Part shown: positions 728 to 4,573 of the stretch, piece after piece
Position numbering within the stretch: position 1 is the first letter of the stretch
Layout of the letters: every line of letters starts with the position of its first letter
Source: a virus
Lineage: Duplodnaviria; Heunggongvirae; Uroviricota; Caudoviricetes
Reading direction: 5' to 3' (one strand)
Length of the DNA stretch: 4,573 nt
Virus record (IMG/VR): IMGVR_UViG_2700989367_000011
Position numbers and translations under genes: made by a program
Notes under the pieces: model-generated
What the model was told of the DNA's origin: nothing
Seen by the model: only the letters and a program-made list of their open reading frames with translations
Databases searched by the model: none

Positions 728-950
728 NNNNNNNNNNNNNNNNNNNNNNNNNNNNNNNNNNNNNNNNNNNNNNNNNNNNNNNNNNNNNNNNNNNNNNNNN
801 NNNNNNNNNNNNNNNNNNNNNNNNNNNNNNNNNNNNNNNNNNNNNNNNNNNNNNNNNNNNNNNNNNNNNNNNNNNNNNNNNNNNNNNNNNNNNNNNNNNN
901 NNNNNNNNNNNNNNNNNNNNNNNNNNNNNNNNNNNNNNNNNNNNNNNNNN
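728..950. other. Assembly gap (223 consecutive N)
   Basis: An uninterrupted run of n characters. It masks the 3' end of the HNH gene, the HNH-terS intergenic region and the 5' end of the small terminase gene. Confidence 0.99.
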
Positions 951-951
951 T

Positions 952-1344
952 GTTTTTACGCCCATCAAAGGTGTTGAGCCACCAGAGTGGTTCGCTGAAG
1001 AAGATCTCCCTCTCGCCACGATCATGTGGCAACTGACAACCAAAGAACTCTGCGGTCAGGGCCTGCTGTGCGTGACTGACCTGGCGGTACTTGAGCGGTG
1101 GTGCGTGGCCTATGAGTTCTGGCGACGTGCCGTGAAAAATATTGCCATACAGGGCAACACCATCACCGGTGCAATGGGCGGCAGGGTCAAAAATCCGGAG
1201 CTGACCGCCAAAAAAGAACAGGAGTCCGAGATGAGCAGCACGGGGGCAATGCTCGGACTCGACCCCAGCAGCCGCCAGCGTCTGATTGGCCTGGCGGGGC
1301 AGAAGAAAGCCACTAACCCGTTTCTGAAAATTATCGAATCATGA
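952..1344 (+). CDS. Terminase small subunit (P27 family), 5' end lost in the N gap
   Basis: The reading frame is open from the gap to TGA 1342-1344. The translation ([130 protein letters not shown]) fits the P27-family pattern as I recall it (PEW..E, GLL..D...L..YC.AY..W, LGL.P.SR.RL). The stop overlaps the terL start in ATGA. Confidence 0.85.
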
Positions 1345-3074
1345 GCCGGAAATCTTACCCCAACGTAAATGCTGCAAATCAGTATGCCCGGGATGTCGTG
1401 CGCGGAAAGATTGTTGCCTGCCAGTTTGTGATTCAGGCCTGCCAGCGCCATCTTGATGACCTGATGGCGGAAAAAAGTAAGTCGTTTCGTTACCGCTTCG
1501 ACAAGGACCTGGCTGAACGGGCCGCGAAATTTATTCAGCTGTTGCCGCACACCAAGGGGGAGTGGGCATTCAAACGGATGCCCATCACGCTGGAGCCGTG
1601 GCAGCTATTTGTGATCTGCTGTGCGTTTGGCTGGGTCAATAAAGGCACCCGGTTGCGCCGCTTCCGGGAGGTGTACACCGAAATCCCCCGTAAGAACGGC
1701 AAATCAGCAATCTCTGCCGGTGTTGCCCTGTATTGTTTTGCCTGTGATAACGAGTTTGGCGCGGAAGTGTATTCCGGTGCCACGACAGAGAAACAGGCGT
1801 GGGAAGTCTTTCGCCCGGCGCGACTGATGTGTAAACGCACACCCATGCTGACGGAAGCGTTCGGGATTGAGGTTAACGCCTCAAACATGAACCGTCCGGA
1901 GGATGGCGCGCGGTTTGAACCGCTGATCGGCAACCCAGGTGATGGTTCATCACCCCACTGTGCCGTGGTTGATGAATATCACGAGCATGCCACCGATGCG
2001 CTTTATACCACAATGCTTACCGGGATGGGGGCGCGACGTCAGCCACTGATGTGGGCCATCACCACCGCCGGGTACAACATTGAGGGGCCGTGCTACGACA
2101 AGCGGCGGGAAGTCATCGAGATGCTCAACGGCTCGGTGCCTAACGATGAACTGTTCGGGATCATCTATACCGTTGATGAAGGTGACGACTGGACCGGCCC
2201 GCAGGTGCTGGAAAAAGCCAATCCAAATATTGGCGTGTCGGTTTATCGCGAATTTTTGTTAAGTCAGCAGCAGCGTGCGAAAAATAACGCCCGTCTGGCA
2301 AACGTCTTTAAAACAAAACACCTCAATATCTGGGTGTCGGCGCGTTCGGCGTATTTCAACTTGGTGAGCTGGCAGAGCTGCGAGGATAAATCACTGACCC
2401 TTGAGCAGTTCGAGGGGCAGCCGTGCATTCTGGCCTTTGACCTGGCGCGTAAGCTGGATATGAACAGCATGGCGCGACTTTATACCCGCGAGATTGACGG
2501 TAAAACGCATTACTACAGTGTGGCCCCGCGTTTCTGGGTACCGTATGACACGGTGTACAGCGTCGAGAAAAATGAAGATCGACGGACAGCCGAACGCTTT
2601 CAGAAATGGGTGGAAATGGGCGTTCTGACCGTTACCGATGGTGCGGAGGTGGATTATCGCTACATCCTCGAGGAGGCCAAAGCGGCGAACAAAATCAGCC
2701 CGGTCAGTGAGTCACCCATCGACCCCTTCGGGGCGACCGGGTTGTCACATGACCTTGCTGATGAAGACCTGAATCCCGTCACTATCGTCCAGAACTTCAC
2801 CAATATGTCCGATCCGATGAAAGAGCTGGAAGCAGCGATTGAATCGGGACGTTTTCATCATGACGGCAATCCCATCATGACCTGGTGTATCGGCAACGTG
2901 GTCGGCAAAAACATGCCGGGTAACGATGATGTGGTGAAACCCGTCAAAGAGCAGGCGGAAAACAAAATCGATGGTGCAGTTGCGCTGATTATGGCGGTTG
3001 GCAGAGCCATGCTGTACGAGAAAGAAGACACGCTGTCTGACCACATTGAGTCCTACGGGATCCGCTCGCTTTAA
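1341..3074 (+). CDS. terL: Terminase large subunit (HK97 / Terminase_1 type), ATPase plus nuclease
   Basis: 577-aa ORF with a Walker A-like motif IPRKNGKS and a Walker B-like motif [11 protein letters not shown] in the N-terminal ATPase half, and acidic residues in the C-terminal half ([22 protein letters not shown]) consistent with the nuclease domain. Its size and position between terS and portal fit. The ATG at 1341 overlaps the terS stop. Confidence 0.95.
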
Positions 3075-3085
3075 CTGAGGTAATT

Positions 3086-3268
3086 ATGATCATGCTGATT
3101 CTCGCGCCTCTGGTGGGCGTGCTGGGTGCGCTTTTGCTGGCGTATGGTGCCTGGCTGATTTATCCCCCGGCGGGTTTTGTTGTTGCCGGGGCGCTGTGCC
3201 TGTTCTGGTCGTGGCTGGTGGCGCGATATCTCGACCGTACACGGCAGTCTGTCGGCGGAGGTAAATAG
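3086..3268 (+). CDS. Small hypothetical membrane protein (60 aa, two predicted transmembrane helices)
   Basis: GAGG (3077-3080) lies 5 nt upstream of ATG 3086. The translation [60 protein letters not shown] has two hydrophobic stretches separated by a YPPAG turn and a basic C-terminal tail. Its TAG stop (3266-3268) overlaps the portal GTG start. I do not recognise the family. Confidence 0.5.
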
Positions 3269-4424
3269 TGTTCTTTTCGGGATTATTTCAACGAAAAAGC
3301 GATGTGCCGGTGACCACGCCAGCAGAACTGCTGATGCTATCGGGCTGTCATACGACACCTATACCGGAAAGCGGATCAGTAGCCAGCGGGCCATGCGCCT
3401 GACGGCGGTCTATTCTTGCGTCAGGGTGCTGGCAGAGTCTGTTGGTATGCTGCCCTGCAGTCTCTACAAAATCAGCGGTACCCTGAAAACACGGGCGGTG
3501 GATGAACGACTGCATAAGTTGGTTTCGGCAAAACCTAATGGCTACATGACACCGCAGGAATTCTGGGAGCTGGTTATTGTCTGCCTGTGTCTACGGGGGA
3601 ATTTTTACGCCTACAAGGTAAAGGCACTGGGAGAAGTGGTGGAGCTTCTTCCGATAGATCCGGGCTGTGTGGAACCGAAGCTGAACAGCCAGTGGCAGCC
3701 GGTTTATCAGGTGACGTTTCCGGATGGTTCCGTGGATGTGTTGACCCAGAATGAAATCTGGCATGTGCGCACCCTGACGCTGGATGGACTTGTCGGGCTG
3801 AATCCCATTGCGTATGCGCGTGAGGCCATTTCACTGGCAGCGGCAACCGAGGAGCACGGTGCCAGGTTGTTTAGTAATGGTGCGGTGACATCCGGTGTGT
3901 TGCGTACGGAACAAAAGCTCACGCCGGATGCTTACGAGCGTCTGAAGAAAGATTTTGAGGAGTGTCACACGGGGCTTGGCAATGCTCACCGCCCGATGAT
4001 TCTGGAAATGGGGCTGGACTGGAAGTCGATGGCGCTGAACGCCGAGGACAGTCAGTTCCTGGAAACCCGCAAGTTTCAGCTGGAAGAAATCTGTCGTCTG
4101 TTCCGGGTGCCGTTGCACATGGTGCAGAACACCGATCGCGCCACCTTCAACAATATCGAAGAGCTGGGGCTGGGATTTATCAACTATTCACTGGTGCCGT
4201 ATCTGACCCGCATCGAACAGCGGATCAACACCGGACTGGTACGAAAAAGTAAGCAGGGCGTTTATTACGCCAAATTTAACGCCGGGGCGTTACTGCGCGG
4301 GGATATGAAGTCCCGTTTTGAAGCCTACGCCACCGGGATCAACTGGGGAATTTACTCTTCCAATGACTGCCGCGACCTGGAAGATATGAATCCGCGTCCC
4401 GGTGGTGTAATGCCGATCAGTTAA
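3268..4424 (+). CDS. Phage portal protein (HK97 family), apparently disrupted: N-terminus in a different frame from the body, and the 3' end runs into the IS4 terminal repeat
   Basis: GGAGG (3257-3261) lies 6 nt upstream of GTG 3268, and that frame gives a portal-like N-terminus MFFSGLFQRKSDVPVTTPAELLMLSG before stopping at 3400-3402. The portal body (…ISSQRAMRLTAVYSCVRVLAESVGMLPCSLY… to …GINWGIYSSNDCRDLEDMNPRPGG) is in the frame shifted by one and has no ATG/GTG/TTG start before ATG 3393. The final codons VMPIS and the stop (4407-4424) are read from the IS4 end. The ORF-track start at TTG 3177 is not supported. Confidence 0.8.
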
Positions 4425-4425
4425 G
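4408..4425 (+). repeat. Putative IS4 terminal inverted repeat (left)
   Basis: TAATGCCGATCAGTTAAG is immediately followed by a second GATCAGTT copy (the octamer repeats at 4415-4422 and 4426-4433). The other inverted-repeat copy and the target duplication are outside the window, so this cannot be confirmed here. Confidence 0.5.
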
Positions 4426-4457
4426 GATCAGTTGACCGATCCAGTGGCTGTGTAAGA

Positions 4458-4491
4458 ATCCGGAAACGCTCACTTGTTTCCGGATTTTTTT
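4458..4491 (+). terminator. Intrinsic-terminator-like hairpin (10-bp perfect stem, 8-nt loop, T7 run) inside the IS4 end, ending directly at the transposase ATG
   Basis: ATCCGGAAAC (4458-4467) pairs perfectly with GTTTCCGGAT (4476-4485), with loop GCTCACTT, followed by a run of T through 4491. The only Shine-Dalgarno-like element for ATG 4492 (GGA 4482-4484) lies in the 3' arm of the stem. Confidence 0.5.
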
Positions 4492-4573
4492 ATGCACATT
4501 GGACAGGCTCTTGATCTGGTATCCCGTTACGATTCTCTGCGTAACCCACTGACTTCTCTGGGGGATTACCTCG
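4492..4573 (+). CDS. insG: IS4 transposase, N-terminal 27 codons (3'-partial; runs off the window)
   Basis: The translation MHIGQALDLVSRYDSLRNPLTSLGDYL matches the N-terminus of the E. coli IS4 transposase InsG as I remember it. The frame is open to the window end. Confidence 0.8.
   Translation, partial: MHIGQALDLVSRYDSLRNPLTSLGDYL

Follow-up and report, generated by a model that had tools for sequence, protein, structure and literature searches.

The window described here, that is the whole 4,573-nucleotide stretch of DNA that was analysed, very probably corresponds to the right edge of a defective lambdoid prophage remnant of ~10 kb with an HK97-type head module, which is fixed in Shigella sonnei and bounded by a recombined, hybrid IS4. 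The features of the portal gene and of the adjoining IS4 end are as follows.

3268..4407, + strand: portal pseudogene, HK97-type, PF04860; first 1140 nt of a gene that has 1242 nt in intact relatives
3329..3330, + strand: -1 frameshift, missing G; the G is present at gene position 63, codon 21, in 3/3 intact relatives
4395..4407, + strand: last 13 nt of portal DNA before IS4 (CGTCCCGGTGGTG), the left copy of a would-be IS4 target duplication
4407..4424, + strand: fusion tail GTA ATG CCG ATC AGT TAA (V-M-P-I-S-stop), from codon reading and the alignment with relatives
4408..4573, + strand: IS4 left end, first 166 nt of the 1426-bp element, identical to annotated copies; the window ends inside the IS
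4408-4425, + strand: left terminal inverted repeat of IS4, within the IS4 left end
4454..4489, + strand: stable hairpin and then a T-run, in the IS4 leader immediately 5' of the transposase ATG (RNA fold -20.6 kcal/mol, z = -4.1)
4492..4573, + strand: transposase start, first 27 codons (MHIGQALDLVSRYDSLRNPLTSLGDYL...), corresponding to the 442-aa gene at L006 13152-14480

Sequence comparison shows the window to be base-identical to S. sonnei chromosomal loci, one of which is CP000038.1, the chromosome of S. sonnei Ss046. Base-for-base matches to positions 1-727, and likewise to positions 951-4573, were obtained in eight of the ten loci returned by an exact look-up of the large terminase. The exact sequence of this terminase (577 aa) is indexed in 4,305 assembly blocks, and that of the IS-fused 343-aa portal ORF, which ends VMPIS, in 1,695. 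The portal-IS4 joint is absent from the 5,426 complete E. coli genomes searched, and the exact junction has no match in the species-representative genomes, a collection evidently without S. sonnei. As the junction recurs in S. sonnei loci and is absent from complete E. coli genomes, it appears to be fixed in this clonal pathogen and to be neither a private mutation nor an assembly error. Flanks beyond IS4 were taken from 19 long S. sonnei source loci of 21 kb each.

The preliminary description had recognised the left end of IS4 at the end of the window, with the portal reading frame running into it, and both the perfect match and clean copies of the element bear this out. Positions 4405-4573 are 100% identical (E 2e-82) to a sequence annotated 'IS4-like element IS4 family transposase' in 2,591 of 5,426 complete E. 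coli genomes. The first base of IS4 is the T of TAATGCCGATCAG at window position 4408, as fixed on the duplication-flanked copies L002, L028 and L032, while homology to intact portals ends at 4407. The element has the terminal sequences of IS4, TAATGCCGATCAGTTAAG... and ...CTTAACTGACTGGCATTA (TAATGCC...GGCATTA in the source genomes), and in the source loci it measures 1426 bp and encodes a single DDE transposase, a 442-aa protein matching PF13006 and PF01609 (the Nterm_IS4 and DDE_Tnp_1 domains seen in full IS4 copies). The transposase ATG at 4492 is the 85th base of IS4, in agreement with the N-terminus reported 85 bp into the element. Set beside IS4 of E. coli and Shigella, the type element of its family, the 166-nt end present in the window is thus identical to annotated copies; the portal-adjacent copy differs in lacking a target duplication and, in most S. 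sonnei genomes, in being split by IS2. It also differs from the E. coli copy L002 at 6 positions, and Shigella genomes are known to share distinct IS4 variants (PMC7373316). The hairpin at 4454-4489 is a generic IS4 feature that a consensus terminator scan left unflagged; from its predicted fold, it may plausibly block read-through from the phage late operon.

The IS4 terminus truncates the portal close to its C-terminus. Intact portals from three E. coli prophages (SC516, STEC308 and STEC276), whose genes (L001, L013, L014) served as alignment references, are all 413 aa long and in a single frame. IS4 abuts the portal after codon 380 of 413, and 33 native residues (381-413) are swapped for five, confirming the earlier view that the native C-terminus has been lost. 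The junction codons at 4401-4424 read GGT GGT G/TA ATG CCG ATC AGT TAA (the slash marks the IS4 terminus), and the V-M-P-I-S-stop tail is supplied by IS4 as had been proposed, save for the first G of the Val codon. Following ...NPRPGG, the intact portals continue with DVYLTPMNMTT and then ~22 variable residues. A natural portal C-terminus ending VMPIS was rejected, as all intact relatives run 33 residues further. The truncated gene is otherwise close to its relatives, with 88.7-93.4% DNA identity over 1140 nt and the last ~370 nt near-identical to SC516. The Pfam Phage_portal profile (PF04860) is covered essentially in full, from profile positions 2 to 321 of 321 (E 1.7e-107), and spans residues 47-373 of 413. 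The best solved relative is chain 8cez_A (entries 8cez and 8fql, which we take to be HK97 portal entries), named 'Portal protein' (E 6e-52), and the alignment to it stops at residue 385. Because the 33 lost residues fall outside PF04860, the IS-encoded tail is the least of the portal's problems; the lost tail is poorly conserved, and judging from these alignments its loss alone might be tolerable.

A second lesion lies at the 5' end of the gene and had been missed by the preliminary description, which took the portal to be a single ORF of ~385 codons. This does not hold, as the GTG at 3268 and the stretch that enters IS4 lie in different frames: a G is missing at 3329/3330, where CTGGC in the relatives has become CTGC in the window. 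Here, exactly as in the relatives, the conserved GTG start shares bases with the stop codon of the 60-aa YmfR-like gene before it. From this start the frame runs for 44 codons to a stop at 3402, and the frame entering IS4 joins portal sequence only from codon ~22; gene callers report the portal as a 343-aa product from the ATG at 3393. The frameshift is best regarded as a real mutation, since the region matches exactly in 7/9 closed S. sonnei chromosomes and the 343-aa call recurs in every locus returned by the exact look-up of the IS-fused ORF. It inactivates the portal gene independently of IS4. Between the frameshift and the loss of residues 381-413, an intact reading frame from conserved start to native stop is not present.

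The portal is the last phage gene of a remnant of ~10 kb that lies between an IS2 on the left (L010 1770-3100) and the IS4 on the right. Its genes are, in order, DnaB-like, RusA, Q, an ORF6N-domain gene, holin, lysozyme, Rz, HNH, small and large terminase, YmfR-like and the cut portal. The IS2 at the left edge adjoins the DnaB-like helicase gene and is 97.6% identical to the IS2 found inside IS4. The order Rz - HNH - small terminase - large terminase - YmfR-like - portal is shared with intact E. coli lambdoid prophages (SC516, STEC308, STEC276). In these relatives the portal is followed by prohead protease, capsid, connector and tail genes, whereas nothing phage-derived follows it in the S. 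sonnei remnant. The intact prophage of SC516, ~37 kb long, interrupts the potABCD operon between potC and potB, and its head and tail genes take up ~17 kb past the portal. Protease, capsid, tail and integrase genes, the modules looked for as marks of a functional prophage, were found in none of the S. sonnei loci. The remnant cannot make particles, because its portal is non-functional in three ways: the frameshift at codon 21, the lost C-terminal tail and the want of partner head genes. The suggestion that the prophage is decaying and makes no normal particles is accordingly upheld by an IS-bounded remnant of ~10 kb without capsid or tail genes.

Several further observations were made on the remnant. 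In two loci (L018 and L024, 164-983) an additional IS3-family element with a 272-aa ORF lies within the DnaB-like helicase gene. At the left of the window, the Rz gene (108-413, PF03245) is cut by the window start, and a 60-aa lipoprotein-like ORF (169-351) is embedded in it in another frame; one annotation scores this ORF as Rz1 (PF06085; L022 6699-6881). The 60-aa hydrophobic ORF between terminase and portal (3086-3268) is conserved in all relatives, has no Pfam family, and is annotated in some E. coli genomes as YmfR, an e14 prophage name. In four loci (L018, L021, L022 and L024, about 7450-9682) gene calls split the small and large terminase into two or three pieces, reflecting either further decay in those strains or long-read indel errors. 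Window positions 728-950 are a run of 223 N where S. sonnei chromosomes have 301 nt (L010 9310-9610). Those 301 nt comprise the end of the HNH endonuclease gene (79 nt), the 121 nt that separate it from the terminase genes and the opening 101 nt of the small terminase gene. The disagreement of these lengths (223 versus 301) suggests a scaffold gap of estimated size, not base-for-base masking.

The right end of this IS4 could be located in the source loci, as the preliminary description had proposed to do; the 11-13 bp target duplication and the portal 3' fragment sought alongside it are absent from 19/19 long loci. Neither a portal remnant nor a protease or capsid head gene was found within 6-8 kb beyond IS4, and a blastn search with the portal 3' end and 4 kb of head genes from SC516 gave matches only 5' of IS4 in every locus. 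The left flank of the element is ...CGTCCCGGTGGTG, and its right flank is GCTCATTGAGCAC... or CAGCCCTTGAGCT..., depending on the locus. In arrangement A (14/19 loci, including Ss046) the right end of IS4 joins DNA 45 bp past the bamE stop, and the flank continues with recN, nadK and grpE. In arrangement B (the other 5/19 loci) IS4 is uninterrupted, and the chromosomal DNA at its right end begins 247 bp upstream of raiA, with pheL, pheA, tyrA and aroF following. Both right flanks are core chromosome, found in 5,426/5,426 E. coli genomes. The missing duplication speaks against a simple insertion, not against the identity of the element as IS4.

The two arrangements differ jointly in the right flank and in the presence of IS2 within IS4. 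The 1331-bp IS2 of arrangement A sits at IS4 position 1123 on the opposite strand (L010 14190-15520), is flanked by a clean 5-bp duplication (GTGTC, IS4 positions 1119-1123), and shortens the transposase to about 374 aa. The IS4 alleles of A and B are identical, with no SNP to mark a crossover. When the IS-fused 343-aa portal ORF was looked up as an exact protein, only arrangements A and B came back, and no ancestral simple insertion. The reciprocal junction, in which TCCCGGTGGTGATGT follows the IS4 right end after 0-3 nt, had no match in the genome and metagenome collections, from which S. sonnei is absent; a forward-junction control in the metagenomes was likewise empty, so this negative says nothing on S. 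sonnei. In the arrangement B loci L020 and L023 (18027-21032), an IS3-family element interrupts the segment after yfiR, together with an IS21-like pair (rve/Mu-transposase C-terminal domain and IstB), which presumably disrupts synteny with E. coli K-12 once more.

The chromosomal breakpoints have the shape of IS4 target sites, for which AAAN20TTT is the consensus. A full-text literature search for this string gave no match, and the flanks of clean IS4 copies together with an IS4-family review were used instead; the target shape is taken from three clean insertions at two sites and a general statement in that review. A 1426-bp IS4 lies between mug and rpoD in L002 with a 13-bp duplication (CACCGAAAAGGTG), L032 has a clean copy at the same site in the opposite orientation, and in L028 a copy between yegP and baeR has a 12-bp duplication. 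These sites consist of an AAAC-NN arm, a duplication of 12-13 bp and an NN-GTTT arm, and at mug-rpoD the break comes 4 nt past the motif's first AAA. The review describes strong target-arm specificity for the IS4 subgroup (PMC2266710). In uninterrupted E. coli DNA, the bamE-yfjF breakpoint reads AAAAAAGGT/GCTCATTGAGCACCTTTTTT and the bamD-raiA breakpoint AAAACGG/CAGCCCTTGAGCTGCCGTTTTT; each is a hairpin terminator of the form AAA-N20-TTT, broken 3 nt after the AAA of the native hairpin, which comes close to the geometry of the clean insertions. The portal site is without the AAA-N20-TTT motif and shares only the GGTG that ends the duplication. The mug-rpoD terminator was observed to hold IS4 in either orientation in different strains (L002 1604-3029, L032 1504-2929), with a 13-bp duplication of the same hairpin each time, which fits a symmetric target usable in either direction.

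Judged by these sites, the right junctions look like products of genuine IS4 insertions in chromosomal terminators; the left junction would then stem from a separate insertion into the portal, making the element at the prophage edge a hybrid. We propose the following sequence of events. IS4 would first have transposed into the portal after codon 380, as inferred from the exact IS terminus that adjoins portal DNA, and other IS4 copies would have entered the AAA-N20-TTT hairpin terminators of the bamE-yfjF and bamD-raiA intervals. By homologous recombination, IS4 copies would then have formed a hybrid whose left junction derives from the insertion in the portal and whose right junction derives from one in the chromosome. 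This step is suggested because the duplication is missing and the right flanks are chromosomal, and its effect would have been to detach the last 101 nt of the portal and all downstream head and tail genes, whether deleted or relocated. A later inversion between inverted IS4 copies around raiA...bamE would have given rise to arrangements A and B, and IS2 would have landed in one IS4. A single crossover 5' of IS2, between inverted IS4 copies, would account for both differences between A and B. Under such an inversion, a second, inverted IS4 is predicted at the distal border of raiA...bamE, past the reach of the 21 kb loci.

Inverted IS4 copies around ~20 core genes could alternatively mark a composite that moved into the prophage, or a segment flipping recurrently in S. 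sonnei populations, an explanation that we hold to be improbable. In the composite transposon, two inverted IS4 copies and raiA...bamE would have moved into the portal as a ~25 kb unit. The portal 3' piece and the head genes should then lie past the second IS4, accompanied by a target duplication, in a prophage that is interrupted, not truncated. Both IS4 right ends do face raiA...bamE, with the IS4 left ends outermost, both right junctions resemble genuine insertions at the native borders of the segment, and two segment orientations are typical of inverted-repeat composites. The model is nevertheless unlikely, as it needs ~20 single-copy core genes to have moved from their native site and is less economical than recombination between IS copies, the route documented in Shigella (PMC8072062); the far end of such a composite falls outside the loci observed.

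A simple insertion, in which one IS4 lies in an otherwise continuous portal, flanked by an 11-13 bp duplication and followed directly by the 101 nt left of the gene, was the reading of the preliminary description and is now very hard to credit. It accounts well for the left junction, a perfect IS terminus joined to portal DNA, yet in 19/19 loci IS4 is followed on the right by chromosome from the bamE or the raiA side, not CGTCCCGGTGGTG followed by ATGTCTATC..., and neither a duplication nor portal or head-gene sequence occurs within 6-8 kb. For the sequenced genomes it is refuted. Contigs mis-joined across the repeated IS4, making the portal-IS4 adjacency or the right flank false, might be suspected from a window that stops inside a repeat and has an N-run of 223 unlike the true 301 nt, but this is next to impossible given that the left junction spans unique sequence and an IS end and recurs in thousands of assemblies, many of them closed, and that arrangement B is common to 5 closed or near-closed assemblies and A to 14. 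A local deletion at the integration site was also considered and found unsupported, the SC516 prophage lying in potABCD, away from bamE and raiA; mosaic relatives may integrate elsewhere.

The recombination between IS4 copies proposed at the portal agrees with what has been described for Shigella at large. All Shigella species have five IS in expanded numbers, IS4 and IS2 among them (Hawkey et al. 2020, PMC7373316), and inversions mediated by IS are far commoner there than in E. coli (Seferbekova et al. 2021, PMC8072062). Recombination between IS copies in Shigella leads to inversions and deletions, and pseudogenes and remnants become fixed in the lineage (PMC7373316, PMC8072062). The portal-IS4 locus is a specific instance of this IS-driven degradation, from which it shows no material difference. 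It is an ordinary and already sequenced example of IS-driven prophage decay, in which the element is the type IS4, the mechanism is textbook and the host genome has been public for two decades.

The significance of the locus is slight outside annotation. What thousands of S. sonnei assemblies annotate as a portal is a pseudogene with two lesions, on the margin of a dead prophage, and the IS4 junction explains short-read contig breaks in this region. The missing duplication, together with flanks shaped like IS targets, exposes this IS copy as a probable recombination hybrid rather than a simple insertion. The locus thereby provides one further instance of the well-documented IS-driven erosion and rearrangement of Shigella genomes.
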